Assembly (NCBI RefSeq): GCF_000186885.1
Contig: NC_014972.1
Span: 2,790,001 to 2,822,000, forward strand
DNA: 32,000 bases
DNA from: Desulfobulbus propionicus DSM 2032
GTDB taxonomy: Bacteria; Desulfobacterota; Desulfobulbia; Desulfobulbales; Desulfobulbaceae
Direction of reading: 5' to 3'
Position numbers and translations under genes: made by a program. This document shows positions 8,674-31,588 of this stretch, piece by piece; positions within the stretch are counted from its first letter, which is position 1; every line of letters begins with the position of its first letter. The notes below the pieces were generated by a model. The model saw nothing but the letters and a program-made list of their open reading frames with translations, searched no databases and was not told where the DNA came from.

Positions 8674-10235
8674 TCGGCCACCTCCAGCCGTCCGGCCAGG
8701 TTGCCGAGCAGATCCAGCCGGGCCATGATCTCGCCGAGCTGTTCGGGTTGGCTGGTTGCCAGGAGATCGATCAGCTGCTCGCGGAACTGCTCCAGGCTCT
8801 CGGCCTGTTCCAGCAGGGACTCGGCCCGGGTGATCAGGTTGGCGGCCGGACCGGCCGACTCGGTCTTGACCCATTGCAGCAGGGTCGACTCCAAAGGGTT
8901 CTTATCCAACTCCCGGCTGTTCTTGGCGGCCTCAACCGGTTCCGGTTGAACGGGTTGTTTATCAGCAGTCTCAACGGCTGCCGGTTGTTCCGCTGGTGGG
9001 GGAGTTCCTAAACAGTCCGCGCCCTCTTCCGGATCCGGCAGCCCCAGCTTGTCGCGGACCACCGATTGCTCGACCTTCAGCCCCAGGGGCACCAGCTTCT
9101 CCAGGGCGGTGACCAGCAGCTGGGTATCCTCCGGCTCCACCGCCTTGATGAGCAGCTCCGGATACTGTTCCTGCGGTCCCCAGTTGAGATCGATGAACGG
9201 CCGGACCAGGTCGCGGTTGATGGTCTCGGAGAGCTGGGTGGCATCATCGTCGCGGATATCTTCCCGCACCTCAGCCTGGGCATCCTCGTTGCCCAGTTTG
9301 CCGGCTGTCCCTTGCGTGGTGGCGGTCTGGCCGAGGATCCCCCGGCTGACCTGGGCATCGAGCCAGTCCGCCAGCTTGTTGAACAGTTCGTGGCCACCGG
9401 TGACCTTGGCGCTCTCGACAAACTCGATCAGCATCGACTCCGGAATCACTGCCGCCGCATCGCTGCCCAGGTTGGCCACCGCAGCTTTCAGGATAGCGAT
9501 GTCTTCCTTGGACGCACCGGGCTGATACTTGCCGACCCGCAGCGGCATGCCGAAGACCTCGGCAAAGGCTAGCCAGTCCTTCACCGTGTAGTTCTTGCAC
9601 ATCCACGCCCAGGCAGCCACGCGGGCGATCCCGCCGCGAATGGGGATGCCGGTCTTCAAATGCGGCAAGTGGCAGATGAACTTGAACGGGGCCAGATCGA
9701 TACCTTCCGCCACATTCTGCTCATCAAGCAGTCTGAGGCGCCTTCGGGAAGCCCGATCAAAGGTGAAAAAGCGGGGATCGCGCCACTCATACCCCACCGG
9801 CCGCCATCTGGCGCCACGCGACCAGAGGATCTCGCACACCGAGAACCCCTTGCCGATGGCATCGAGCAGGTCCTTGAGCAAGCCACGGAAACCGGCCTGT
9901 TTCACAAGTGCCCGCACCTCGTCGGCCAACTGCACATCCTGGGGTTCATCACTGGCTGCTTCCACCGTGATCGGCAAGGAGGCCACGGCCAACTTGCGTT
10001 TGGAAATCTCGCAGCGGTAGTGCAGATCCCGCTCCTCCATCTCCTCGGCAAGCGTCAGGTACTCGCTGATCTCGCCTTCGGCGGCCCGTTGCAATAGCCC
10101 AGCCAACCGGTACGGGGTCAGGCCCGAGGCCACGGTCACGTCCCAGACGCTGCGGATCCCGGCCAGGCTGGGTGCGGCCAGTTCCTGGGTCAGGGTTCGG
10201 GTTGTGACCGGTCGGTTAAGATAGTCGTAGATCAC
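8670..10235 (-). CDS. Portal protein, Mu gpH/gp29 (DUF935) family
   Basis: 521 aa, directly downstream of the large terminase. The N-terminal region LTPYRLAGLLQRAAEGEISEYLTLAEEMEERDLHY and overall length fit DUF935 portals. Confidence 0.85.
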   Translation of the reverse strand: MIYDYLNRPVTTRTLTQELAAPSLAGIRSVWDVTVASGLTPYRLAGLLQRAAEGEISEYLTLAEEMEERDLHYRCEISKRKLAVASLPITVEAASDEPQDVQLADEVRALVKQAGFRGLLKDLLDAIGKGFSVCEILWSRGARWRPVGYEWRDPRFFTFDRASRRRLRLLDEQNVAEGIDLAPFKFICHLPHLKTGIPIRGGIARVAAWAWMCKNYTVKDWLAFAEVFGMPLRVGKYQPGASKEDIAILKAAVANLGSDAAAVIPESMLIEFVESAKVTGGHELFNKLADWLDAQVSRGILGQTATTQGTAGKLGNEDAQAEVREDIRDDDATQLSETINRDLVRPFIDLNWGPQEQYPELLIKAVEPEDTQLLVTALEKLVPLGLKVEQSVVRDKLGLPDPEEGADCLGTPPPAEQPAAVETADKQPVQPEPVEAAKNSRELDKNPLESTLLQWVKTESAGPAANLITRAESLLEQAESLEQFREQLIDLLATSQPEQLGEIMARLDLLGNLAGRLEVAE

Positions 10236-13493: not shown

Positions 13494-14039
13494 TTAGGTG
13501 CGACCGAACACGCCGGGAAAGTCCTCGTGCTGGCTCCAGGCCTTGTAATGAAGGTATTGCTCGCCGTTCTGACAGCGAACCAGGAGGCGCGGCGAACGTT
13601 TGCGCAGGCACATCGTGACCGCCTGCAGGGTTTTGGGACCCATGATGCCGTCCACCACCAGGTCCGGGTAGAACCGTTCTCGTGCGTTGAGGGCGTTCAA
13701 GGCCCGCTGGAGGAACTTGGTCCCGTTGCCCGGTCCGCAGTTGACCGAAGCTTCGAACAACTCCTCGGCAACTTCCGGACTGACCACGTCGATGTGGTCA
13801 CAGCTCAGCGGCTGCCAGAACTCGGTGCGGTAGAACTCACGCACCAGATCGGTCAGGCCAGGCGCCAAAGACAAGGCGTGGCCCGCATGCAGGCAAGCGT
13901 CGATAATCGGCCAGCCCTCCCAAAGAGGATGCTTGTTGCGGGCGATGCCCATGTAGGTCTCACCACCCTTGTCCTTGGGGTTGTTGCTGTAGCCGCCCTC
14001 GTGTTGCAGGGTGGCGGCAAATGCGCGAGCAAAGCTCAT
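13494..14039 (-). CDS. Endolysin, glycoside hydrolase family 108 with C-terminal peptidoglycan-binding region
   Basis: 181 aa. The N-terminal FAATLQHEGGYSNNPKDKGGETYMGI is the GH108 signature, and the region around GIMGPKTLQA resembles PG_binding_3. Confidence 0.85.
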   Translation of the reverse strand: MSFARAFAATLQHEGGYSNNPKDKGGETYMGIARNKHPLWEGWPIIDACLHAGHALSLAPGLTDLVREFYRTEFWQPLSCDHIDVVSPEVAEELFEASVNCGPGNGTKFLQRALNALNARERFYPDLVVDGIMGPKTLQAVTMCLRKRSPRLLVRCQNGEQYLHYKAWSQHEDFPGVFGRT

Positions 14040-14513: not shown

Positions 14514-16697
14514 ATGAATGGCAATGCATCAACAAGCCAAGAAAATGGAACGGCGATGACTCAAAAGCTGCAAGAAATAATTAAAGACAGTGCATACAAC
14601 CTTAGTCAATTCAAGCCTGAACAGATTTCAGCCTTGGAATCCGCAATAAGCATCAAGGGTTCCGGCACAAAAGCAGCTCCCTATGTAACGTGCCTGATGC
14701 GAGGCAAACCGATCAAGCTCACTCCGGAAGAAACCATTCGGCAACTCTACCTTATGGTACTCCGTGACGATCTGGGATACCCCGTGAGTCGCATGGCCGT
14801 CGAATATGAGGTGACTTTTGGGCGTGAGAAGAAACGTGCCGACATCTGCATCTTTGACAAGGACAAGACCAACACGCCATACATCCTGGTCGAACTAAAA
14901 AAACCGAAACTCAAGGACGGCAAGGAACAGCTCAAGAGCTACTGCAACGCCACCGGTGCACCGATGGGCGTATGGACCAACGGACAGCAGATTTCTTACT
15001 ACCATCGCAGGGACCCAAACTATTTTGAAGACATCCCCGCTATCCCTTCGGCCCATGAAAAACTGTCGGACATCCTCTCCGAGCGCTGGACGATCGATGA
15101 CCTGATTAAACTCGACAAACTGGTCAACGAGAAAAAGTCCCTGAAAGACCTGATCCTCGAAATGGAAGACGAGGTGCTCGCCAACGCGGGCGTGGACGTG
15201 TTCGAGGAGATGTTCAAGCTCATTTTCACCAAACTCTATGATGAGTTGGAAGGCGGGCGCGACAAGAAGCGCCATCTAGTTTTCAAAAACTACGGCGACA
15301 CCGAAACCGAACTCAAGGCCAAGATTCAGGATCTGTTTGACAAGGCTTGCGCCAAATGGGAAGGCGTTTTCCCGGAGAACGTTAAGATAGACCTCACCCC
15401 GAGCCACCTGGCAGTGTGCGTTTCTTCCCTGGAAAAGGTCAAGCTGTTCAATTCCAACCTGGAAGTAGTCGATGAGGCGTTCGAATACCTCATCAACAAG
15501 TCCAGCAAGGGTGAAAAGGGTCAATATTTCACTCCGCGCTATGTCATCGACATGTGTGTGAAGATGCTCAATCCGCAAGCGCATGAAACCCTGATCGATA
15601 CGGCCGCCGGGAGTTGTGGCTTTCCTGTACATGGTATCTTTTATGTCTGGGAACAGATCATGAAAGAAGAAGGGCTCGCAAAGAGTCATCTCTTCACCAC
15701 GGATAAAAAGCCCGCGCGTTGTGAGGACTATGTCCGCGACAAGGTTTTTGCCATCGACTTTGATGAAAAAGCCGTACGTGTTGGCCGGACACTCAATCTG
15801 ATCGCCGGTGACGGCCAGACCAACGTGCTGCACCTCAACACCCTGGACTACGAACGCTGGGACGAAAAAACCAGCGACGAAACCTGGATAGATATTTACG
15901 GCGAAGGCTGGAAGAAACTGCGCAAGCTACGGCTTGATAAAACCAGCAACCGGGATTTCGGTTTTGATGTACTGATGGCCAACCCGCCCTTTGCCGGTGA
16001 TATCAAAGAAACCAGAATCCTGGCCAAGTACGACCTGGCCCGCTCGGTACGCCTCGACAAAATCGGCAAGGTAGACCCAAAGGACAAGAACATCGTCACC
16101 GCGCATGATCGTGCCCCCAGTTTCACCGAAGCCCTGCATGCCAGCCATGAGGTCATTTATCAAATGGCCGATGGTACCTACCGCAAGGTCAAGGTCAAGA
16201 ACCAGAACAAGGTTGGCCGCGATATCTTGTTCATCGAGCGGAATCTCAATTTTCTCAAACCTGGCGGCCGCATGGCGGTGGTACTGCCACAGGGCCGTTT
16301 CAACAACGCCTCGGACAAGGATTTACGGGAATACCTTGCAGCACACTGCCGCATCCTCGCCGTAGTCGGCCTGCACGGTAATGTGTTTAAGCCACACACC
16401 GGCACCAAGACCAGCGTACTTTTCGTGCAAAAATGGAATGACGATTCAAAAGCCGGTCCGCTTTGTCCGAGGGTGGATGACTATCCGATCTTCTTCGCCA
16501 CCATGCGCGAGCCCAGCAAGGATAATTCCGGTGATAAAATCTACCGGCAAGGGCCGGACGGCTCGCCGCTGCTCGACAGCCACGGACACCTCATCGTCAA
16601 GCATGATCTATTTAATCACGATGGCTTGACCGAGGATGGTATCGCCGATGCCTTTATCGAGTTTGCCAAGAAAGAGGGCCTCAGTTTTTTTCTCTAA
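14514..16697 (+). CDS. Fusion of an HsdR-N-terminal-type PD-(D/E)xK domain with a gamma-class N6-adenine DNA methyltransferase (BcgI-A-like / HsdM-like)
   Basis: 727 aa. The N-terminal segment VEYEVTFGREKKRADICIFDKDKTNTPYILVELKKP...GVWTNGQQISYY fits the E...D...ExK nuclease-fold pattern. The methyltransferase motifs are GQYFTPRYV, motif I LIDTAAGSCGF and motif IV NPPF (VLMANPPFAG). An alternative start is the ATG at 14556. Confidence 0.85.
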   Translation: MNGNASTSQENGTAMTQKLQEIIKDSAYNLSQFKPEQISALESAISIKGSGTKAAPYVTCLMRGKPIKLTPEETIRQLYLMVLRDDLGYPVSRMAVEYEVTFGREKKRADICIFDKDKTNTPYILVELKKPKLKDGKEQLKSYCNATGAPMGVWTNGQQISYYHRRDPNYFEDIPAIPSAHEKLSDILSERWTIDDLIKLDKLVNEKKSLKDLILEMEDEVLANAGVDVFEEMFKLIFTKLYDELEGGRDKKRHLVFKNYGDTETELKAKIQDLFDKACAKWEGVFPENVKIDLTPSHLAVCVSSLEKVKLFNSNLEVVDEAFEYLINKSSKGEKGQYFTPRYVIDMCVKMLNPQAHETLIDTAAGSCGFPVHGIFYVWEQIMKEEGLAKSHLFTTDKKPARCEDYVRDKVFAIDFDEKAVRVGRTLNLIAGDGQTNVLHLNTLDYERWDEKTSDETWIDIYGEGWKKLRKLRLDKTSNRDFGFDVLMANPPFAGDIKETRILAKYDLARSVRLDKIGKVDPKDKNIVTAHDRAPSFTEALHASHEVIYQMADGTYRKVKVKNQNKVGRDILFIERNLNFLKPGGRMAVVLPQGRFNNASDKDLREYLAAHCRILAVVGLHGNVFKPHTGTKTSVLFVQKWNDDSKAGPLCPRVDDYPIFFATMREPSKDNSGDKIYRQGPDGSPLLDSHGHLIVKHDLFNHDGLTEDGIADAFIEFAKKEGLSFFL

Positions 16698-16729
16698 GCC
16701 CCTTCGACAAGGCGCAGTATGAGCGCCTG

Positions 16730-18175
16730 TTGGAGGGGCTTGAAGTGAGCGAAATTCAGTTTTCCGAAGCGCTATCCGGAACAAAAACGTCACGCATCGA
16801 CCCTGAGTATTTCAATAGAGCAGCCACCAAAACCCTGAAAATGATAAAGGGGACATTGCGGCTAGGGGATCTTGTTCAAGATGGTTATCGGGTCGTCTAT
16901 GAAACCACAGAGGCCATCGATCGGGAAGAAGGGGAACGCCTAGGCCTGCCCTATTTTCTGCAAAGCGCTGACATATCGACACCTTTCATCAATGCCAAGT
17001 CTATGGTTTGTGTAGCCCTTTCGGATTGGGAACGCTACCCAAAGGGGCGCATTATTCCCGGGGAGCTGCTTATCGAAGTCAAAGGCAAGGCAGAGAAGAT
17101 CGCTTTGGTTCCCGATGATTTTCCCAAAAATACGCTTGTGACAGGGACCTGTTTCAAGCTTACAACCAAGCAACGCGTCGATCAGTATTTCTTAGCAAGT
17201 TATCTTACTTGCCGTTACGGCCAAGCCCTTAAAGATCGGCTAAAAAGCAACTTGCTTGTAAGCTATATCGCAAAAGATGATCTTTACCGACTTCCCATCC
17301 CAGACCTCTCCCCTGAGATTAAGCTCAAGATTAAGTTTTGTTTTGACCGGTGCTTCGAGGCGCATGAAGAAGCTCAATCTTTAATGGACGAGGCCGAAAC
17401 CACGCTCCTTCGCGCACTCGGCTTAGAAAATTGGCAAGCTCCAGAATCTTTGAGCTATGTCCGCAACAGCCGCGATGCATTTGCTGCCGGGCGACTGGAT
17501 GCAGAGCATTTTCAAGAGAAGTATTATGCGGCAAAAACAGCCTTGATTAAAGCAGGCGCCAAGTGTTTTATCCCTTTCCCTGAACTGTTGGAGTCTTTGA
17601 CAAACGGGCATACCCCTCTACGTCACGATTTGAGCAAGGGTGAAGTTCCGTTCCTATGTGCAGAACACGTTAACGATTTCAATATCAAATTTGACAGTGA
17701 GAAACGTATCCTTCTTGAGCACCATGGAAAAGAACTAGCACGCACAGCCGTTCACGATGGTGATGTATTGCTCACTATCAAAGGAAGAATTGGAAATGCG
17801 GCTATCGCAGAAAACGTACCGGGAGCAGTCAACATCAATCAAGACGTTGCCCTACTTCGCCTCAATGAAACATTGCCTATTTGGTATATTGTTGCCTACT
17901 TGAATTGCCGTTTTGGAAAATTACAATCTGAAAAAATGGCAACAGGAGCCATTAATCCCTTCCTTGGTCTTTTTAGTGTCCGTCGGTTTGAAGTCCCTGA
18001 ATTTGAATATGAGACTATGCAAGAGATTGCCGACAGTACCCAATCGCTCGTTAAGTCGTCCCGCTCTGCTTGGCAAAAGGCATCTCAGTTTCTCGACACG
18101 GCTAAGCGTGCTATTGAAATTGCCATCGAAGAAAACGAAACAGCCGCGATGGCATATCTGGAGGGGGCTGTATGA
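16730..18175 (+). CDS. hsdS: Restriction-modification specificity subunit (HsdS-like, two target-recognition domains)
   Basis: 481 aa. The conserved spacer motif occurs twice, as SRIDPEYF near the N-terminus and GRLDAEHF mid-protein, each followed by a variable TRD. It has a TTG start, and the frame is open from 16616, so the exact start is uncertain. Confidence 0.8.
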   Translation: MEGLEVSEIQFSEALSGTKTSRIDPEYFNRAATKTLKMIKGTLRLGDLVQDGYRVVYETTEAIDREEGERLGLPYFLQSADISTPFINAKSMVCVALSDWERYPKGRIIPGELLIEVKGKAEKIALVPDDFPKNTLVTGTCFKLTTKQRVDQYFLASYLTCRYGQALKDRLKSNLLVSYIAKDDLYRLPIPDLSPEIKLKIKFCFDRCFEAHEEAQSLMDEAETTLLRALGLENWQAPESLSYVRNSRDAFAAGRLDAEHFQEKYYAAKTALIKAGAKCFIPFPELLESLTNGHTPLRHDLSKGEVPFLCAEHVNDFNIKFDSEKRILLEHHGKELARTAVHDGDVLLTIKGRIGNAAIAENVPGAVNINQDVALLRLNETLPIWYIVAYLNCRFGKLQSEKMATGAINPFLGLFSVRRFEVPEFEYETMQEIADSTQSLVKSSRSAWQKASQFLDTAKRAIEIAIEENETAAMAYLEGAV

Positions 18176-18747
18176 GCGGAGACTACTATAAAGAGTGGCG
18201 TGCAAAGGCCGAGGTTGATTATTTCCCGCAATTGGTAGTTTTATGGCTTTCAACCAATTCGTGGTACCGATCTCACTACTCCGAAATCACAACCAAGCGC
18301 GACCGTGACTTTCTCAACAAGCTTCGAGACGATCACAGCACCAGGAACAAGCTTTTTACGAGGTTTGATAGGCTGCTCGGGTCTGCTGGCACCAAAGATC
18401 ATGCCGAACTGATCAGTGTCATCGAAGCGCTCTCATTCGCTTTAAATAGCGCTTTGCTCCTTTGGGAAGAGAATAAGGGCGACAGCGTAATCACCTTCGA
18501 AAACTGCCTGCTAGCGCTGAATCCCAAAATGTACGGCAGTCTCGTTGTCAAGAAGCGAGCGCCAGGTATCCGCATCAGCGACACACTCAAGCTTACCGAT
18601 GACAAATCTTCTCTTTTTAATGGGCTGCTTGAGATAATTTACCAGATCCGCTGCCACCTGGTTCATGGCCAACTGGAACCAAATAACGAGAACCATGAAG
18701 TGGTGAAGCATTGTTATCGTTTGCTGCATCTACTGATGCAGATTTAA
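18172..18747 (+). CDS. Hypothetical 191-aa protein with a C-terminal Rx4H motif (possible HEPN-type RNase)
   Basis: Its ATG overlaps the hsdS TGA as ATGA. The protein is predicted helical. The motif YQIRCHLVHG places R160 and H165 in Rx4H spacing near the C-terminus, followed by Gly as in many HEPN families. Confidence 0.4.
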   Translation: MSGDYYKEWRAKAEVDYFPQLVVLWLSTNSWYRSHYSEITTKRDRDFLNKLRDDHSTRNKLFTRFDRLLGSAGTKDHAELISVIEALSFALNSALLLWEENKGDSVITFENCLLALNPKMYGSLVVKKRAPGIRISDTLKLTDDKSSLFNGLLEIIYQIRCHLVHGQLEPNNENHEVVKHCYRLLHLLMQI

Positions 18748-18807
18748 AACGGAAAAGATTCTGACTGCATTTCTCCACCCCCAAATCCTTCTATCAACGA
18801 GCAAGAA

Positions 18808-19710
18808 ATGGAAATAACCGTTCAGGCTTTTGAACTGAAAACAGGAAAAGGAATTTCTCTCCAGCATTTTGGTGACCACCTCAAAACTCTGTCGGTGTCG
18901 TCTGTGAAGAACAGGTACATCTATGTTGATCGGACAGATGGATGGTGGCACGGTTTGCTGTTGACGGCTCGAAATATAAAAGCCTTTGCACGGATGGAAC
19001 GACAGGGGGGACGGGTTATTTTAAGCCCGGAATCTATTAAAAATGGGGAACTTGCACATTTTAATTTTTTCTTAGTGCACGAAAAGTTTGGGAGAGGATT
19101 ATATCAGTATTATCACGGATCATCCTCTGTCCATGGATTTGCACAAGTATTGAAGCAACATTATAATGGATTTAAAAAGCAGTGTATCGAGAGAGATTGC
19201 CTTGCTGAAAATATTTTGGCAGATTCACCGCCGAAGAAAATAACTAAACGTTATGCCGGTTATCTGGTTTACCAGCTTGTTTTACGCAGAAAATCGTTCG
19301 AAGCTCTCATGAAAGAGCTTAGAGGAGTAAGAAAAGTCTCACTTCAGTTTGTTGAATATGAACCTCATCAGAGATTGTTTAGATCGCTTGCAGGCAAAGC
19401 GAAGGCAGTGCAACACAACCTTACATTTGGCAATAAATATGACGGATCCATCAGAGATGATCTAGTAGAGTTGGCAAACACCGATATTTTGAAGACATTG
19501 AGCGGAGTAGGTATTGACGATAACGATGTCGAACGGCGTTTTCGTTTACTGAATGAGCCTGAATCGCTTGGCAATTTCGATTTTAACGATATTGTCCTTT
19601 CAACTGAGTTCGACTCGGAAGATGTTCATTCGAGTCTTGAGCGAGCGCCTGTCCTCTCAAAAATGAAAACGATAGCCGAATCTGACAATTGGTTGATGGG
19701 TAAAATATAA
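18808..19710 (+). CDS. Hypothetical 300-aa soluble protein, no family recognised
   Basis: Clean ORF with an ATG start in a low-GC context. It has no TM segments and no catalytic motif that I can name. Confidence 0.6.
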   Translation: MEITVQAFELKTGKGISLQHFGDHLKTLSVSSVKNRYIYVDRTDGWWHGLLLTARNIKAFARMERQGGRVILSPESIKNGELAHFNFFLVHEKFGRGLYQYYHGSSSVHGFAQVLKQHYNGFKKQCIERDCLAENILADSPPKKITKRYAGYLVYQLVLRRKSFEALMKELRGVRKVSLQFVEYEPHQRLFRSLAGKAKAVQHNLTFGNKYDGSIRDDLVELANTDILKTLSGVGIDDNDVERRFRLLNEPESLGNFDFNDIVLSTEFDSEDVHSSLERAPVLSKMKTIAESDNWLMGKI

Positions 19711-19711
19711 A

Positions 19712-20236
19712 ATGGTCACTTTTATTCCATACATAGCGACTATTTTTGTATCCATTTGTTGTTGGTTTGCCCTGTTCAATTTACCTGATACGAATCGATT
19801 TTCTTGCCTCTACGATACAAAACTTCAGCTTGTTTTCTTTACTGCATTTCTCACTGTTGGCAGTTTTCTTCTGGCAATGAAGGCTTTTATCCTGATTCGG
19901 ATCCGGGATGATATTTATCGCCACGAAAAGTATAAAGAACGATATCTACTACAGTATGATAATCAGTATAAGGGAGATTATTATAAAGGGTTACTCGATC
20001 TGGGCAATTTGCTTGTTGTCAGTGTTGCCGGAGCCTTCTTTACGTCAATCGCTCAAATAACTATCGGATTCAGCAAAATATACCCTATAAAATGCATTGC
20101 TCCGTCACTTGTTGGCGGGATGCTCGTCCTCGTGTTGTTTGACTGGCTTTTTGTTTATCTCAATTTACGAGACTGGTTCGAATTTATCGAATCCGACATA
20201 GAGAAAGAATTGAAGGAAAAGAAAGAAACTCTTTGA
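19712..20236 (+). CDS. Hypothetical 174-aa integral membrane protein (four predicted TM helices)
   Basis: It starts 1 nt after the upstream stop. Hydrophobic helices lie at about aa 3-23, 38-62, 96-119 and 128-152. A Tyr/Lys-rich central loop (IYRHEKYKERYLLQYDNQYKGDYYKG) and a charged C-terminal helix complete the protein. Confidence 0.6.
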   Translation: MVTFIPYIATIFVSICCWFALFNLPDTNRFSCLYDTKLQLVFFTAFLTVGSFLLAMKAFILIRIRDDIYRHEKYKERYLLQYDNQYKGDYYKGLLDLGNLLVVSVAGAFFTSIAQITIGFSKIYPIKCIAPSLVGGMLVLVLFDWLFVYLNLRDWFEFIESDIEKELKEKKETL

Positions 20237-20354: not shown

Positions 20355-20675
20355 TCAAAACAACCGCAACTGCCGTCCATCCGACCGCCCCAATATATTC
20401 CAGATCTGCCGTTCCTGGAGCCCATACTTGCGGGCCAACTCAACCCCCGAATACTTACCCGTATCATAGTCGCTGCGAATACACCGGTCCCGCCAACTAC
20501 GAGTCCAGGTCTTCCAGCCGTAGATTCGCACCGGGGTGCCGTCAAAGCGTTGGGCCAACTTGAGGGCGTTGCCAATGCCGATCAGCTCGGCAATGGTCCG
20601 CATGTCGCCGTTCAATTCCTCCAGCCGGGGCCAGGCATCCGGCGGCAGATCGATGATTTCGTGGGGCCTGCTCAC
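20355..20675 (-). CDS. mor: Mor-family middle/late transcription activator
   Basis: The segment IAELIGIGNALKLAQRFDGTPVRIY...RDRCIRSDYDTGKYSGVELARKYGLQERQIWNIL matches the Mor/C family. I favour the GTG at 20675, which overlaps the upstream TGA as GTGA. The ORF-track start at 20756 would overlap gemA by 85 nt. Confidence 0.75.
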   Translation of the reverse strand: MSRPHEIIDLPPDAWPRLEELNGDMRTIAELIGIGNALKLAQRFDGTPVRIYGWKTWTRSWRDRCIRSDYDTGKYSGVELARKYGLQERQIWNILGRSDGRQLRLF

Positions 20676-21130
20676 TTCTTTTGCGTCCCTTGCGTCTTCA
20701 ACCGATGCTCCAGATCGGTGATCAGGATATGCAGAGCCTTGCTGTCCTCGAGCCACTCAAACCGATCCACGCCGAACTGCTTTTTCACCCTGGCGTGGAT
20801 TTTGTTGATGTCGTAGCCCAAGGCGTGCCACAAAGCCAGCACCTTGCGTTGCTGCTTTGCCGCTGGGCCGGGCTTGATTTCCAGATACTGGCCATCGGTT
20901 TTTCGTTGTTGCTTTTGCCCATCAAAGCGTGGCTGCCAGCCCTTGGCTTTGAATAGATTGATCAGATCCCTGGCTTGCCGCTCGTTCAGTTCCTTGGCCG
21001 AGTCCACCTGAAAATAGTGATGAAGAATATCGCGGTAGGCTTCGTCGGTCAGGGCCAGTTCCTTCTTGGCAATGTGGATCCGGGCCAATGCACTGTTACT
21101 TGGCGTCATGTGGCTCTCCATACTGGGCAA
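20672..21130 (-). CDS. gemA: GemA / Mu gp16-like regulatory protein (DUF1018)
   Basis: 152 aa. The segment ALARIHIAKKELALTDEAYRDILHHYFQVDSAKELNERQARDLINLFKAKGW fits the DUF1018 pattern. The true start may be the internal Met at 21109. Confidence 0.7.
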   Translation of the reverse strand: MPSMESHMTPSNSALARIHIAKKELALTDEAYRDILHHYFQVDSAKELNERQARDLINLFKAKGWQPRFDGQKQQRKTDGQYLEIKPGPAAKQQRKVLALWHALGYDINKIHARVKKQFGVDRFEWLEDSKALHILITDLEHRLKTQGTQKK

Positions 21131-24183: not shown

Positions 24184-24212
24184 AGGCCGGTGTTCCCGCA
24201 CCGGCCTTTTTT
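24184..24212 (+). terminator. Hairpin AGGCCGGTG-TTCCCG-CACCGGCCT followed by TTTTTT (terminator-like only in the plus-strand sense), between the A-like and B-like genes
   Basis: Perfect 9-bp stem read from the sequence. The T-run overlaps the complement of the transposase TAA stop codon. Confidence 0.4.
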
Positions 24213-26379
24213 ATTGTCCGCTGACCGCCTTGCGCCACATCAGGCCGTATTTGATTCGGCACGACTCCCAGTATTCCGGAAAATTGCGGTAGGGGTCGGT
24301 CTTCTCGAAGAAGGTCATGAAGTCGTTCCACTCTTGGGTGAGTTCCATGCCCTGGGCGCTCATTTCGATCAATCGTTCGTAGCGATCTGAATCGTTCAAC
24401 CGCATCAGCTCCTCTTCCAGGGCTTTGGCGACCGCCTCCTGTTGCAACCGTGTGGCCTCTTCCACTTCCCGGCGAAGTTTCTCGGCATCCAGGCTGATCA
24501 TTTTGCAGTTGGACGTGTCGATGGTCTGGATTTCACCGTTCAGCACCCCGATCTCGGCCATCTGCCGGCGGTGCTCGGGCAGGATCTCGTCCTTGAGCAG
24601 AGACCGGGCCGAGGCCGAGGCCTGTTTTTCCTGGTTCTTCTTCAGGGCGATGTGCTGGCGCAGTTTTTCCTTATCTCCCTCGTTACCCAGCTGGGCTGCC
24701 GCCGGGTGCACCTTCTCCACCGGGGTGGCCTCGCAGATCAGTTCGCCCTGTTGATCGAGCACCCAGATCGAGCTGGTATCCTGGAGGTCATAGCGGATGG
24801 ACACTTTATGCCGGCGGCCATAGAGGGCTGGGTGGTAGTAGTTCTGGCCCCGGAAGGTGATACCGTTGCGGTGGATGGTCTTGATTTCCAGGCTCATCAT
24901 CAGCCAGATCAGCTCGGTCTTATCGACACCCGGCCCCTTGCCCTCGACAAAGACCTCCATCGGGTTCCTGCCGTTCAGGTGGCCCCGTTGGGGCCGCTTG
25001 GCGTACTCATCGAACCAGAAGGCGATCAGGGTGTGGGCCTCTTCCAGGCTAAGGCAGCGGCTGCCAAACTGCTGCTCGTGGATTGTGCGGTGCAGTTTCT
25101 CCCCTCGCAGCATCCGGGGCGGCTTATGCTCGATGCTGGTCCCGGTATAGCCGGGGACCAGTCGTTCCAGTTCGGCAAAGGAGCCGAAGAACCGTTCGAC
25201 CGTCTTCGATTGGCCGTGATAGGGCCAGGCATAGATGGTCTGGCAGCCCATGCGTTCATAGAGGCCGGCATATCCTGCCTCGTCGAAGTTCTGGGAGCCC
25301 TTGAAAAACCTGGCCTTGAAGGCTCGGCCGTTGTCCAGGTAAACCACCCGGGGATACTTGCCCAGCCGCAGGACCGCTCGGCGCAGCGCACTGGAAATGG
25401 CGGCCGTGTTCTCGGTCGGCATGATCTCCCAGCCAAGCGGCATGTTGGAGGCCATATCGTAGAACAGGATGAGGGTCATGTGGTTCTGCGGTTTGCCGGT
25501 CCAGGGGTTGATGATCTCGAAGTTGAGGTTGTGGCCGTCGGCCACGATCACATCCCCCACGTTCAACAAATTCATGTCGCGCTCGATGTACATCGCGCAC
25601 TGGTCGTTCCAGGCCTTGGCGCCCTCGCGGGAGAATACCCACAGATGGTGGTTGCGTTCCTTCCAGTGATGGAGCCATCTCCGATAGGTGGCCTCGCTGT
25701 GGGTGTTGTCGATGCCCTGCTGTTCCATAACCGCCTTGGCCACGCGGTAGGCCTCCGAGATCCTCGGCCGGTTGGGCCGGAGCACGCAGCGGAGGAAGAT
25801 CTCGGTCTGCTGTTCCGTCAATCCACACTTGCCTCGTAGATGGGCGCCACGCTTATCGGCCAGGAAGAAGCAGTCATTGCCATGTTTGCGCACCTTGACT
25901 GACCAACTCTCGATGGTCTTCCAGCTTACCGGTCCAAGTTGTTCGTAGAGGTGCGGCCAGGTCAGGCCGGAGTTGTATGCCTGCTCGAATTTCACCCGCG
26001 CTTGGGTTTTGTCGCCCCAGTCAGCGGTGGCCAGTGCCCGATTGTACAAGGCGAGCAAGGCAGCCTTGTGCTGCATTTTCTCCTCCATGCGTTTGGTCAT
26101 CGGAGGTGGAGCAGTCTGTGCGCAGGGTGTGGAGATGGTTGCAGGAAAAAGGGAAACCGGGCTGCTTGGTGCCGAAGGTTGCAGGTTGCCGACACTTTGT
26201 CGCAAGGCAATGGCTGTTTGCACTGCCTTGGGGAGCCGATCGAGAAGATAGCGTTTCTCTTTGCCGCCTCGAACATCGGTCTCTTGATAGGGCCATTGTT
26301 CCTTATTGGCCCTTCGTTGAGCCGATGTCCGGTGGATGCCAAGCGCCTCGGCAATCTCGTTGATTGTTACCTGTTCCAT
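24211..26379 (-). CDS. MuA-like DDE transposase
   Basis: It has an N-terminal HTH (MEQVTINEIAEALGIHRTSAQRR). The rve-type core carries VIVADGHNLNF, VVYLDNGRAF and GQSKTVERFF, which supply the D, D and E residues. The long C-terminal domain resembles Mu transposase. I prefer the ATG at 26379 (AGGGA ribosome-binding site); the ORF track extends to 26436. Confidence 0.9.
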   Translation of the reverse strand: MEQVTINEIAEALGIHRTSAQRRANKEQWPYQETDVRGGKEKRYLLDRLPKAVQTAIALRQSVGNLQPSAPSSPVSLFPATISTPCAQTAPPPMTKRMEEKMQHKAALLALYNRALATADWGDKTQARVKFEQAYNSGLTWPHLYEQLGPVSWKTIESWSVKVRKHGNDCFFLADKRGAHLRGKCGLTEQQTEIFLRCVLRPNRPRISEAYRVAKAVMEQQGIDNTHSEATYRRWLHHWKERNHHLWVFSREGAKAWNDQCAMYIERDMNLLNVGDVIVADGHNLNFEIINPWTGKPQNHMTLILFYDMASNMPLGWEIMPTENTAAISSALRRAVLRLGKYPRVVYLDNGRAFKARFFKGSQNFDEAGYAGLYERMGCQTIYAWPYHGQSKTVERFFGSFAELERLVPGYTGTSIEHKPPRMLRGEKLHRTIHEQQFGSRCLSLEEAHTLIAFWFDEYAKRPQRGHLNGRNPMEVFVEGKGPGVDKTELIWLMMSLEIKTIHRNGITFRGQNYYHPALYGRRHKVSIRYDLQDTSSIWVLDQQGELICEATPVEKVHPAAAQLGNEGDKEKLRQHIALKKNQEKQASASARSLLKDEILPEHRRQMAEIGVLNGEIQTIDTSNCKMISLDAEKLRREVEEATRLQQEAVAKALEEELMRLNDSDRYERLIEMSAQGMELTQEWNDFMTFFEKTDPYRNFPEYWESCRIKYGLMWRKAVSGQ

Positions 26380-26469
26380 CGTTGTCCCTTGCTTGCAAAA
26401 ATCCATCTTCGTGCTACTTTGATCATCGAAAAACAACGAATTATCAATATTTCGCGAAAGGATGGAAAC

Positions 26470-27934: not shown

Positions 27935-28681
27935 ATGAGTCTTGGAAACAGAATTAAATCCGTCAGAGGAACCCTTTCCCAAAAAGAGTTTAGCGATGTG
28001 TGCAAGGTTGGGATTTCTACGCTTAGGCGTTATGAGTCAGGAGTAAACCCTCCTGACTCCGATTTTTTATGCGCTATCGTTGATAATTATAATATCAACC
28101 CTATGTGGCTGTTGAGTGGTGAGGGGCCGATGTACCGAGAAAGAAACACGGATCCGCACGGTGCCAGTACTAATTCAACCAGCGCAAAGATACCGCAACG
28201 GCCTGTTTATATGGACGATAGCGGCCAAGTAGTCATCCCCCAATGGCAGAATCCCGATCCAGAGATGTTCGATTACATCCCTATGGCGGAAACGCAACTT
28301 TCCGCAGGGGGAGGAGCCTTTGTTATCTCGGAAGAGATCGAAGGATATTATGCATTTAGAAAAAGCTGGCTGAGCAGAGTCGCATCCAGCACCAAGAACT
28401 TGGTACTCATGCGGGTTCTCGGAGACTCGATGTCGCCAACCATTCAGGAAGACGACACAGTGATGATCGATATCGGGAAAAGATCGATAAAGGAGGGAAT
28501 GATCTACGCCATCCGCTTTGATTCCACAGTCATGATTAAGCGGTTGGCCTTTCGCCCTGGCGGGCGCATCATGATAATCTCAGACAATCGGCACGAATAC
28601 GAGCCTTACGAAGCCGACATGAGGGAACTGCACATCATCGGCCAGATCATTTTTTTCTGCCGAACCTTCGCCACCGAATAG
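27935..28681 (+). CDS. Prophage repressor: XRE-type HTH plus S24 (LexA/CI-like) autopeptidase domain
   Basis: 248 aa. The N-terminal HTH is LSQKEFSDVCKVGISTLRRYESG. The C-terminal domain has GDSMSPT (catalytic Ser) and MIKRL (Lys). The gene is divergent from the early operon. Confidence 0.85.
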   Translation: MSLGNRIKSVRGTLSQKEFSDVCKVGISTLRRYESGVNPPDSDFLCAIVDNYNINPMWLLSGEGPMYRERNTDPHGASTNSTSAKIPQRPVYMDDSGQVVIPQWQNPDPEMFDYIPMAETQLSAGGGAFVISEEIEGYYAFRKSWLSRVASSTKNLVLMRVLGDSMSPTIQEDDTVMIDIGKRSIKEGMIYAIRFDSTVMIKRLAFRPGGRIMIISDNRHEYEPYEADMRELHIIGQIIFFCRTFATE

Positions 28682-28954: not shown

Positions 28955-28994
28955 GAAACAAAAAAGCCACTTAGCAAAAACTTGCTAAGTGGCT
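28955..28994 (-). terminator. Rho-independent terminator downstream of tRNA-Arg
   Basis: A 13-bp perfect stem (28965-28977 pairs with 28982-28994) with a 4-nt loop is followed on the minus strand by TTTTTTGTTTC. Confidence 0.65.
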
Positions 28995-29002
28995 GATATT
29001 AC

Positions 29003-29079
29003 TGGTGAACGAGGCGGGATTCGAACCCGCGACCTTTGGCTTCGGAGGCCAACACTCTATCCAGCTGAGCTACCCGTCC
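29003..29079 (-). tRNA. tRNA-Arg(CCG): tRNA-Arg, anticodon CCG, with encoded CCA
   Basis: I folded the 77-nt reverse complement by hand: GGACGGG-TA-GCTC-AGCTGGATA-GAGT-G-TTGGC-CTCCGAA-GCCAA-AGGTC-GCGGG-TTCGAAT-CCCGC-CTCGTTC-A-CCA. All four stems pair, with two G-U pairs in the acceptor stem. Confidence 0.9.
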
Positions 29080-29243
29080 GTAATATATTTATTTTATCAC
29101 AGTGGCTTAAAACACTTGGCGCACACCGGTGCTTTTTTACCAAAAAGAGCTCCCAATTACCACAAGTATTCTCACTTTCAGCCTTCTTTTCTCTCCAGAC
29201 GACCGCTGACGCGCAATCCTCTCGAACAGCGGCAGCACAGGGG

Positions 29244-30263
29244 TCACACCCTGTAATAACGTCGGTACCAATCAACGAAGTTTCTGATTCCCTGTTCAAT
29301 GGACGTGGACGGTTTGAAACCGACCGCTTGCACCAAGTCGGCCACATCGGCATAGGTTGCGGGAACATCCCCATCCTGGAGCGGAAGAAAATTCTTACGA
29401 GCCTTTTTTCCCAGGCAGTCTTCCAGCACTTCGATGTAGCGCATCAGCTTTTCCTTCTTGTTGTTGCCGATGTTATACACCCGCCAGGGGCAATAGCTGG
29501 TGGCGGCGTCCGGTTGGTCGCCACTCCATTGCGAATTGGCCGAGGCCACGTGGTCAATAACCCGCACCACCCCTTCGGCAATATCGTCGATGTAGGTGAA
29601 ATCCCGCTCCATGTTGCCGTTGTTGAACACATTGATCGGCCGGTCTTCGAGAATGGCCTTGGTAAAGAGAAACAAGGCCATATCCGGCCGGCCCCAAGGA
29701 CCATAGACAGTAAAAAAGCGCAGTCCCGTGGTCGGAATATGAAACAGATGGCTATAGGTATGGGCCATCAGTTCGTTGGCCTTTTTCGAGGCGGCATAGA
29801 GGGAAACCGGGTGATCGACATTGTCATGCACCGAAAAGGGCATGCGGGTGTTGGCGCCATAGACCGAACTGGAAGACGCATAGACCAAATGCTTGACGCC
29901 GGTGTGGCGGCATCCTTCAAGGATATTGACAAAACCGACCAGATTGGTGTCCACGTAAGAGTGGGGATTGATCAACGAATAGCGTACCCCGGCCTGGGCA
30001 GCCAGGTTGACCACCGCATCGAACTGTTCACGGGCAAACAGGGCCGCCGTCCGCTCCCGGTCGGCCATGTCAAACTCGACATGGTGGAAGGCGGCGAAAG
30101 CCTGCAACTCGGCCAAGCGGTCCCGTTTGAGTTGCGGATCGTAATAATCGTTGAGATTATCGAGCCCGACAACCGAGCGCCCTTCCGCCAACAGTCGAAG
30201 GGTCAAGGCGTGACCAATGAAGCCGGCCGCGCCGGTAACCAATATCTTGTGCAACGCTTTCAA
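29244..30263 (-). CDS. NAD-dependent nucleotide-sugar epimerase (UDP-glucuronate 4-epimerase-like, extended SDR)
   Basis: It shows the Rossmann motif VTGAAGFIG, the catalytic YAASK, and ends in DWYRRYY. The likely start is the TTG at 30263, 6 nt after AGGAGG; the ORF track extends to 30299. Confidence 0.85.
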
Positions 30264-30307
30264 TGCCTTCCTCCTCTCTTTCCCGCAGCCTGGAACCACG
30301 ATCCAGG

Positions 30308-31588
30308 TCAGTCGTCAAAATTCCCCTGCGGCCCCTTGTCGGTGGACAAGGTGGCGCCCCATTCCCTGATCTTGGCCACGGTCCAGTTCTCGGGCGACTC
30401 GATCCGGCCGGTTTTCGGACCGATATCGTAGGAACCGGCCTCAAGTATGGCCTCGACGCCAAAACGGGCGGTGTCTGCGGCATTGAACACTTCCACCAGC
30501 ATGGTGTAGATAAAATTTTCCACCCGCCGGGCCATCCGTTCACGAATTGCCTTGGGCTGGCCCATGATTTTATTTTCAAACGGCAGGTTCAAGTTCTTGT
30601 AATCGCCTGTTTTCCAACCCTTGCTCTCGGCATGGGCGCGCATCGCCTGCCATAGCTCCTCAGTGACACCCTCGCCGGGAATTTTGATAAAATCACCGTT
30701 GGCGTCAAGAGCCGCATTGCCATAATCGTTGACTTCCAATCCCCAGGAAACCATTTGCAACGCGGTGGCCACATTGGCCTTGGTGGTGTAGGTCTGGGCG
30801 GCGATTGCTCGCAGCCGATCGGAGTTGTTGCCCGAGGTGCCGTGTTGGGCTCCGGACACCGCATAACCGGCCAGCGCCTTGTGGATGTCGGCGGTCAGTT
30901 CCACCTGAATTCCTTGGGCGGATGCCTCGATGCCATGGGTCGTGCCGTTGTTGAGTGCGATCCAATCGGGAAAAATATCGTGCGCGTTGAGCCCCTGGAT
31001 GATGAACAAGGCCTCTTCCTTGGTGGACAGGCCAAGTTTACCTTTGATTTCCCCGACCTCGGTTTCCAGACCGGCCCAAACGGGAACATACTTGGCCAGT
31101 TCGATGCTGGCCAGCAGGTTGTCGGCATCGGGCATGTGCGAGGCGTCGATGGCGATTGAAGTGATGCCTGCCTCGAAGATGGTGGGGATTTCGACCGCCG
31201 CCACCGGCACATCCTCAGCCTTCTTGATGCCATAGTGATCGGCATGAATAGCCACCGGCACGGTAATGGCCAGCTCGTTGCACAGCGCGTCCACCTGACG
31301 GGCAATGTTCCAGTAGTTGACGGGGCAGTAGGCGTTAGCTCCGCCCTCGGATCGGGCAATCTCGATGATGATGGCCGCATGGGCCCGCTGCGCCGCCTGA
31401 AGGGCCCCACGGATAATCAAGTGATTTCGACCATTGGCGGCAATGGTCATCGCGCCACCCTTGGCCAGCATCGCGCGGTCGATCACCTTGCCGCTGACGA
31501 TCAGGGCGCGTGAATGGGGAAACAGGGTGCGAATATTCGGCGGCCGGCCGATCTCCAGGGCTTTTTCAAAATCAGCTATATAGGACAT
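30308..31588 (-). CDS. fba: Class II fructose-bisphosphate aldolase family protein (long form)
   Basis: 426 aa. It carries the metal and substrate motifs [17 protein letters not shown] and NNGTTHG. Confidence 0.8.

Follow-up and report, generated by a model that had tools for sequence, protein, structure and literature searches.

The subject of this analysis is a pair of adjacent genes, Despr_2453 and Despr_2454 (here gene A and gene B), of Desulfobulbus propionicus DSM 2032, whose possible kinship in design with the RexA/RexB exclusion system of phage lambda is examined below. They lie in a stretch of 32,000 nucleotides (contig NC_014972.1, positions 2,790,001 to 2,822,000), which is referred to as the window and to which all coordinates of the pair and its surroundings relate. 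Gene A (18808-19710, + strand) starts with ATG and encodes a soluble protein of 300 aa with a pI of 9.1; gene B (19712-20236, +), likewise with an ATG start, encodes a protein of 174 aa with four transmembrane (TM) helices. A preliminary description of this DNA had read the pair as an undescribed defence or exclusion module, and the separation of the two open reading frames (ORFs) by a single nucleotide, on which it relied, is indeed found (TAA-A-ATG, 19708-19714, +). Such spacing suggests that the translation of A and B is coupled.

Judged from its gene content, the element that surrounds A and B is a Mu-like prophage on the minus strand, with an S24/helix-turn-helix (HTH) repressor (27935-28681, +), a Mu transposase (24211-26436), a MuB-like AAA_22 ATPase, a DUF3164 protein and GemA. 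Within it the pair closes a co-oriented, low-GC accessory array (14514-20236, +) that runs antisense to the lytic genes of the prophage, between Mor (20355-20756, -) and a GH108 endolysin (13494-14039, -). The array opens with a fused HSDR_N nuclease/N6-methyltransferase (14514-16697, +) and an HsdS-like subunit (16730-18175, +), i.e. restriction-modification (RM) genes, which are followed, directly before A, by an ORF of 191 aa that belongs to no assigned family (18172-18747, +). The GC content falls stepwise along this array: it is 0.516, 0.470 and 0.476 in the three genes 5' of A, and 0.412 and 0.383 in A and B, the lowest values in the window, compared to 0.585-0.615 in the flanking phage genes and 0.567 over the window as a whole. 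Both the stepwise drop and the occurrence of A-B in some 45 other loci without these RM genes suggest that the pair was acquired separately from its RM neighbours, and the idea of an independently acquired cassette, first raised on the basis of the low GC content, is thereby strengthened.

Scans of the region 13.4-21 kb for promoters and terminators gave nothing above shuffled expectation (the sigma-70-like sites numbered 10, versus 7.2 +/- 2.6 after shuffling), and a repeat scan of the same region found no flanking repeats that delimit the cassette. Two sigma-70-like hexamer pairs lie within gene A, 5' of B (19138-19167 and 19568-19595, +). They recall the lambda promoter P_LIT, which lies within rexA and expresses rexB alone.

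Protein A has no TM segment, as had been noted before, and matches nothing in Pfam, NCBIfam, PADLOC or the PDB sequences; its sole match among the PHROGs is phrog_2802 (E 5e-17), the function of which is unassigned. A megablast search with the cassette against phage records returned no match either. The protein has 34 close homologues of 298-302 aa, and a profile search extends these to a superfamily of 640 cluster representatives at 50% identity, nearly all of 300-320 aa, the named members of which are all labelled 'hypothetical protein'. Among 108 diverse members the only invariant column is G49, while M1, N86, F88, G97, Y99, Y102, S105 and G235 are conserved in at least 90%. Conserved columns cluster in ELAHFNFF (aa 81-88) and in RGLYQYYHGSSS (aa 96-107), and sharply conserved motifs of the family are ELAHFNFF and RGLYQYYHGS. 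No polar residue of a catalytic type is conserved among these 108 proteins, which is more in keeping with a role of A in binding or sensing than with an enzymatic one.

At the level of the predicted fold, the soluble protein, which had been called unrecognisable, can be recognised. An AlphaFold2 model built on 29 homologues (predicted local distance difference test, pLDDT, 80; predicted template modelling score 0.78) was compared to the PDB with Foldseek, and the top match was lambda RexA (8twq_B, E 1.2e-6, probability 1.0, 277 aligned columns over 279 residues), followed by E. coli RdgC (2owl, E 2.7e-4) and then by the CENP-N/Chl4 kinetochore proteins. The E-value for RexA is thus about 200-fold better than that for RdgC. 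RdgC-annotated phage proteins were also present among the BFVD matches of the model.

The domain organization of the model agrees with this ranking. Residues 1-150 (18808-19257, +) would make up the N-terminal part of a split globular domain, with five main beta strands and helices at 18-27 and 108-133; residues 154-247 (19267-19548, +) would form an inserted alpha/beta domain (strands 154-159, 173-181, 203-206, 228-236 and 242-247, plus three helices), where RexA has its dimerisation domain; and residues 256-300 (19573-19707, +) would supply a C-terminal strand and helices that rejoin the globular domain. RexA itself consists of a split globular domain (1-139 and 248-279) and a dimerisation domain (143-234), and its published structural relatives are RdgC and IML3/CHL4 (PMC11077077). 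In the model A has both features of that fold class, namely a split beta-sheet domain interrupted by an alpha/beta domain and similarity to 8TWQ, and it is accordingly predicted to be a RexA/RdgC-fold protein. The likeness to RdgC, as far as the model goes, is one of fold only; RdgC, like RexA, binds DNA non-specifically as a dimer (PMC11077077).

Protein B has hydrophobic segments at aa 4-22, 38-56, 100-118 and 132-150 (in lambda RexB they lie at 8-26, 48-67, 84-102 and 116-134). Hydropathy and conservation place TM1, a short outer loop and TM2 at 19721-19879 (+), and the stretch F43..F46-L-T-x-G50-x-F-L-L is conserved across the superfamily. The loop of aa 57-99 (19880-20008, +) stands out by composition and conservation, with nine Lys/Arg and seven Tyr residues, of which Y74 is invariant; by the positive-inside rule it would be cytoplasmic, and it is a candidate docking surface for A. 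TM3 and TM4 follow (20009-20161, +; Q115 and G119 invariant), and the protein ends in a charged amphipathic helix (aa 151-174, 20162-20233, +) with five Lys/Arg and eight Asp/Glu residues and the motif NLRDWFxFIE, which, like LLAMKAF..R...D.Y, is sharply conserved in the family. The four hydrophobic helices, the Tyr/Lys-rich loop and the charged tail are those of the preliminary description. In the AlphaFold2 model B is an all-helical bundle (pLDDT 90), and the charge distribution would put both termini in the cytoplasm. In its small size (about 140-190 aa), its four TM helices and the placement of its two termini on one side of the membrane, B is predicted to share the architecture of RexB.

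There are 35 close homologues of B, of the same length and on the same contigs as those of A, and A and B are both taken to be genuine genes. Pfam, NCBIfam, PADLOC, the PDB sequences and the PHROGs hold no match for B. The best BFVD match of the B model comes from the uncultured virus ctylc9, which is also the source of an A-like match. A holin was considered as well and rejected: the lysis gene lies on the strand opposite to B, and B, which invariably comes as a pair with A and often has a repressor beside it, matches no holin PHROG.

The association of the two genes is strongly conserved. A homologue of B lies directly 3' of A in 40 of the 43 informative loci, that is in all 20 loci from genomes, prophages and IMG/VR and in 20 of the 23 from metagenomes; of the remaining three, one reaches the end of its contig, one has a broken A gene and one holds a fragment of A. 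The gap between the two genes ranges from -56 to +15 nt in these 40 loci, often as an ATGA overlap, and the B homologues measure 159-193 aa and have about four TM segments at the same spacing. Directly 3' of each A-like gene examined the B profile finds a match (E 1e-18 to 1e-93), down to about 22% identity for A and about 23% for B. Linkage that persists to such divergence implies that A-B is an obligate two-gene unit, and the adjacent, co-oriented, tightly coupled and co-inherited A-then-B order is that of a RexAB-type pair. As to individual gene models, B in a Desulfamplus metagenome-assembled genome (locus L002 of our collection, 8908-9435) is called as 120 aa, and an intact ORF of 175 aa is obtained from an upstream alternative start. 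In locus L006 (8001-8354) only a B remnant of 117 aa is left, beside a RhuM-family gene, which suggests that the module decays in some genomes.

The genome context of the homologous loci, which covers both the regulatory position of the pair and the company that it keeps, points in the same direction. In Mu-like prophages close to that of the window (L001, L003/4, L005, L007 and L059) A-B ends a co-oriented array that starts with an S24/CI-type repressor, and these arrays are located at the prophage edge, beside host genes. Among ten distant IMG/VR loci, six have a repressor and a divergent small gene, then one to three genes, then A-B, and a co-oriented repressor is found upstream of the pair in L014 and L030 as well. 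Altogether, an HTH/S24 repressor precedes A-B in the same orientation in at least 13 loci (L001, L003/4, L005, L007, L014, L019, L021-25, L030 and L059), a layout that mirrors cI-rexA-rexB in lambda and PP_3896..rexABpp in Pseudomonas putida. The family is in this sense prophage-encoded, on the lysogeny side and near a CI-type gene; the pair in the window is likewise in a prophage and antisense to its lytic genes, and A-B would be expected to be expressed in lysogens.

The neighbours often include genes of defence-related families. Co-oriented with A-B in its array are a DrmC-like PLD nuclease (L003, 6528-7052), a methyltransferase fused to an Mrr/restriction endonuclease (L005, 3589-5214), an HNH nuclease (L007, 4965-5522), a retron-type reverse transcriptase (L024, 2980-3756) and, beside TnpB, a CAP12/PCTIR TIR protein (L059, 3367-4050), and in L057 (1-1992) the neighbours are HEPN_Swt1-DUF499, TerB and ArdC. 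That last locus, an ArdC/HEPN island, and L058, where the pair lies beside an insertion sequence, are outside recognisable prophages. Qualitatively, then, homologous loci are enriched in defence genes (RM, PLD, HNH, retron reverse transcriptase, TIR and HEPN), as the preliminary description would lead one to expect.

The superfamily extends to E. coli, where the pair is represented by WP_000868396.1 (308 aa, A-like) and WP_001131905.1 (182 aa, B-like). Of 5426 complete E. coli genomes, 219 (4%) carry its DNA, including O104:H4, O111:H8 and O121. In the lambdoid phages mEp460_4F5 (L011, LR595868, 3855-5316) and vB_EcoS-569R4 (L012, ON470598, 3881-5342) A-B lies antisense between antiterminator Q and the holin, and the O104:H4 copy (L056, 5935-7396) shows the same Q-to-holin layout and additionally holds tRNA genes and a SASA esterase gene within that interval. 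This site parallels the Mor-to-endolysin site of the window: both are moron slots antisense to late genes. The NCBI Prokaryotic Genome Annotation Pipeline calls both E. coli genes hypothetical in 12 of the 12 records listed, and in LR595868 the B-like gene is unannotated and an ORF of 56 aa on the opposite strand is annotated instead.

RexA/RexB of lambda is the oldest known abortive-infection system. Its genes are transcribed together with cI and exclude T4 rII mutants; RexA is a soluble 31-kDa dimer that binds DNA non-specifically, and RexB has a mass of 16 kDa and four TM helices. RexA is believed to detect the infection and to activate the RexB channel, with depolarisation and loss of ATP as the result (PMC11077077, PMC12894663). 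A-B resembles this system in its design, namely a soluble protein of about 30 kDa that is slightly basic (pI 9.1 for A, 8.6 for RexA) and has the predicted RexA/RdgC two-domain fold, the gene of a small four-TM protein directly after it, and a location in prophages, often in the repressor operon and on the lysogeny side. We therefore consider it probable, at roughly 70%, that A-B is a two-component module of the RexAB type for abortive infection or exclusion, which the Mu-like prophage carries as a moron on its lysogeny side, and the pair is best filed as a very divergent new member of the RexAB-type kind, outside the sequence families of RexA and RexB. The proposal of a defence or exclusion module is thereby upheld in kind, by design and genomic company, and we infer such a function for this particular pair. 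A prophage superinfection-exclusion design had been alluded to before without RexAB being named, and it is with the RexAB type that the predicted fold of A and the A-B layout agree.

That the module would be undescribed, as had been supposed, does not hold for its design, which is classical and has a 2026 precedent in P. putida, recognised by the same kind of approach and with defence shown by experiment (PMC12894663). There, defence requires RexABpp (PP_5643/PP_5644, prophage P1 of strain KT2440); RexApp binds DNA, and when it is overexpressed, growth arrest and membrane permeabilisation follow that depend on RexBpp (Rosendahl et al. 2026, PMC12894663). Exclusion that requires both genes, with membrane depolarisation or growth arrest triggered by the A-type protein and dependent on the B-type protein, is shown for lambda and RexABpp only, and no more than five Rex-like systems are counted as described (PMC12894663). 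RexApp differs from the present family in that it reaches 98% HHpred probability to RexA, whereas the A family falls short of significance in hhalign. The termini of RexABpp as derived from primers (MHRTATFV.../...QSRLMV and MLIGQLANP.../...GYKLQE) match no collected A or B protein, a comparison by termini only; the primer-derived DNA patterns of PP_5643/5644 were not found in IMG/VR, and the published RexBpp mutation positions are carried by none of the collected proteins.

Several observations weigh against a RexAB-type assignment. Sequence similarity to lambda is absent for both proteins. Pfam RexA (PF15969) matches neither A nor any of the 108 diverse members, and the PADLOC RexA and RexB models match neither A, B nor the E. 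coli homologues, while the lambda proteins match the same models with E-values of 9e-110 (RexA, PDLC02339) and 8.6e-61 (RexB). Lambda RexA maps to phrog_12654 (6e-163), the A family to phrog_2802. An hmmsearch of the A profile against the PDB sequences did not find 8TWQ, and when A profiles were aligned by hhalign to RexA itself or to a RexA alignment of 25 sequences, the E-values were 0.03-0.38 and the probabilities below 2%. The four A-RexA alignments obtained with hhalign are collinear, none of them is significant, and three begin in the first 15 residues; only the region of A residues 1-150 is repeatedly put in register with RexA 1-112, again without significance, and in the two alignments that reach so far the conserved G97...G104-S-S of A falls on the conserved G102...G109-P-T of RexA. 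This agreement in register is only a hint. By sequence A thus lies outside the RexA family in the strict sense (PF15969, PDLC02339, phrog_12654). For B, no similarity to RexB is detectable (hhalign E 0.37; B profiles score RexB with E 0.2-1.5), and a BFVD fold search with the B model returned uncharacterised four-TM proteins only, RexB not being among them, so that by sequence B is likewise placed outside the RexB family in the strict sense (PF15968, PDLC02340, phrog_14878). In the fold comparison, the global TM-score of A versus 8TWQ is low (0.28, with a root-mean-square deviation of 11 A), which may probably be attributed to the interdomain hinge, the model being open and the crystal closed (PMC11077077).

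Further differences concern architecture, location and distribution. B exceeds RexB in length by 30 aa and has a Lys/Arg/Tyr-rich TM2-TM3 loop of 43 aa and a charged C-terminal helix. In the window, the pair occupies the Mor-to-endolysin interval and is separated from the repressor by about 8 kb, rather than adjoining it as in lambda. The A family comprises 640 clusters at 50% identity versus 36 clusters at 90% for canonical RexA, and is taxonomically wider than the latter, the named members of which are all Enterobacterales. Finally, whether exclusion is the primary function of Rex is debated even for lambda (PMC11077077).

If the pair does act as a RexAB-type module, its mechanism may be pictured as follows, by analogy to lambda and P. 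putida. Like lambda RexA and RexApp, A would dimerise and clamp DNA non-specifically, and in this way might sense replication or recombination intermediates of a superinfecting phage. It would then engage the cytoplasmic loop or the tail of B, which, as the presumed effector and counterpart of RexB and RexBpp, would oligomerise or open when triggered and so collapse the potential or the integrity of the membrane. The infected lysogen would arrest its growth and the superinfecting phage could not complete its cycle, from which phage protection would result.

An alternative that starts from the same genomic location is that the pair is a module of prophage development, in which A would bind DNA or the repressor and bias the lysogeny-lysis switch or tune induction, with B as a modulator and exclusion as a by-product. 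A-B is frequently part of the repressor operon. In lambda, RexA can stabilise the lytic state without RexB, and the authors of that work question exclusion as the true function (PMC11077077). We consider this reading unlikely: in the window and in the E. coli lambdoid phages a long distance separates A-B from the immunity region, the pair is also found where no prophage is recognisable (L057, L058), its strict linkage and its defence-gene neighbours fit a self-contained cassette better, and RexApp defended without a need for switch functions (PMC12894663). A role in development and one in defence are, moreover, not mutually exclusive.

The fold itself allows a second alternative, namely that it is convergent or anciently shared, and that A is an RdgC-like protein of recombination or DNA metabolism with a membrane partner, working by a mechanism unrelated to Rex, for example by regulating, at the membrane, how DNA enters, replicates or recombines. 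The match to 2owl is significant, RdgC-annotated phage proteins occur in the BFVD list, and sequence homology to RexA or RexB was not found. Against this, the match to RdgC is clearly weaker than that to RexA, and Pfam RdgC (PF04381) matches neither A nor the 108 diverse members. RdgC is a stand-alone chromosomal gene without a membrane partner, and we know of no RdgC that is paired with a four-TM protein. Pairing with a four-TM protein, location in prophages and linkage to a repressor are all features of Rex, and we regard the RdgC-like alternative as quite improbable.

A toxin-regulator pair of the addiction type, which would stabilise the mobile element through a membrane toxin (B) kept in check by a cytosolic regulator or antitoxin (A), seems very improbable to us. 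Two small, translationally coupled genes on mobile elements would suit such a pair, RexBpp is toxic when triggered, and clones expressing both P. putida genes were unobtainable (PMC12894663), but in those relatives that have been characterised the A-type protein switches its partner on and does not neutralise it (PMC12894663). Furthermore, A is larger than its partner and has a predicted fold of the DNA-clamp type and not an antitoxin fold, and a B remnant without A persists in L006, which would be surprising for a protein toxic by itself but is weak evidence since the remnant is truncated to 117 aa. That A and B would be accessory subunits of the upstream RM operon (14514-18747) is hardly credible: the five genes do lie on one strand with short gaps and no convincing terminator between them, but the GC content falls from 0.47-0.52 to 0.38-0.41 at A, and in the many other loci noted above the pair occurs without those RM genes.

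The Rex-like pairs of actinobacteriophages (Sbash gp30/gp31, CarolAnn gp44/gp43, Toast gp42, Butters gp30/gp31), which we liken to A-B by their description only, are prophage-encoded, combine a cytosolic with a membrane protein, lie close to the immunity repressor and exclude heterotypic phages, and their RexA-like partners dimerise and bind DNA non-specifically (PMC11077077). They differ from A-B in that they belong to other phyla and other sequence families, and in Butters the cytosolic partner and not the membrane protein is reported as the effector (PMC12894663). Kiwa combines a membrane and a cytosolic protein as well (KwaA/KwaB), but has the opposite gene order, as had been remarked before, and a different fold of the soluble partner, and no PADLOC match to KwaA or KwaB was found. 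The earlier view that the pair is distinct from Kiwa, CBASS, Pycsar and Thoeris is borne out, these readings having been rejected on the ground that no PADLOC family matches A or B at E-values up to 0.1.

A wider reading, which we put forward tentatively and hold at a little under even odds, is that the A/B superfamily, with at least 640 clusters at 50% identity and a range from Mu-like prophages of Desulfobacterota to lambdoid prophages of E. coli, represents the principal branch of Rex-type immunity and has so far escaped recognition, being far larger than lambda RexAB and having an effector B that is not a homologue of RexB. If so, different small membrane effectors would have joined DNA sensors of the RexA/RdgC fold on more than one occasion. 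A RexAB-type role of A-B would in itself add to the Rex-like systems a large, phylogenetically broad and strictly paired family, which is annotated as 'hypothetical' or 'unknown function' in all libraries examined. The trigger and mechanism of Rex exclusion are still unresolved some 70 years after its discovery, and a natural E. coli representative with conserved motifs would make the sensing by RexA and the opening of its partner directly testable, both comparatively and genetically. Two hypothetical genes between Q and the lysis genes of E. coli lambdoid prophages, in a moron region, would likewise gain a probable function; this layout is confirmed in O104:H4, and the genomes of O111:H8 and O121 contain the pair as well. 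In practical terms, A-B flags a gap in the PADLOC models tested.

The genes next to the pair deserve a few remarks of their own. The fused protein at the start of the array (727 aa) joins an HSDR_N_2 nuclease-like N-terminus to an N6-adenine methyltransferase, and scores 1141 bits with PADLOC MTase_I and 313 bits with NCBIfam MAD2, which is under the 720-bit cutoff of the latter; the HsdS-like subunit that follows it has 481 aa and two target recognition domains. No HsdR helicase-nuclease gene is present at this RM locus (14514-18175, +), and the genes look, by sequence, like a BcgI-like/type IIB-style RM system or a MADS-like fragment within the prophage. The start of the 191-aa ORF overlaps the hsdS stop (ATGA), and near its C-terminus the encoded protein carries an Rx4H motif (RCHLVH, aa 160-165) reminiscent of HEPN domains. 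It has no Pfam, NCBIfam, PDB or plasmid match and only weak ones to PADLOC DzbB (E 0.0039) and to a PHROG (E 0.07), and may be an RM-linked effector.

At the edge of the prophage, directly 3' of the S24 repressor and beside a host aldolase gene, an ORF of 480 aa (28989-30431, +) occupies the slot that is taken by A-B in related Mu-like prophages. It has no Pfam or PADLOC match and is overlapped by a 351-aa ORF on the opposite strand, and could be either a different lysogeny-expressed moron or a spurious ORF. Nearer to the pair, the Mor and GemA ORFs overlap by 85 nt (20672-20756, -) when taken from the first possible start, and the true start of Mor is probably further downstream than the GTG at 20756.

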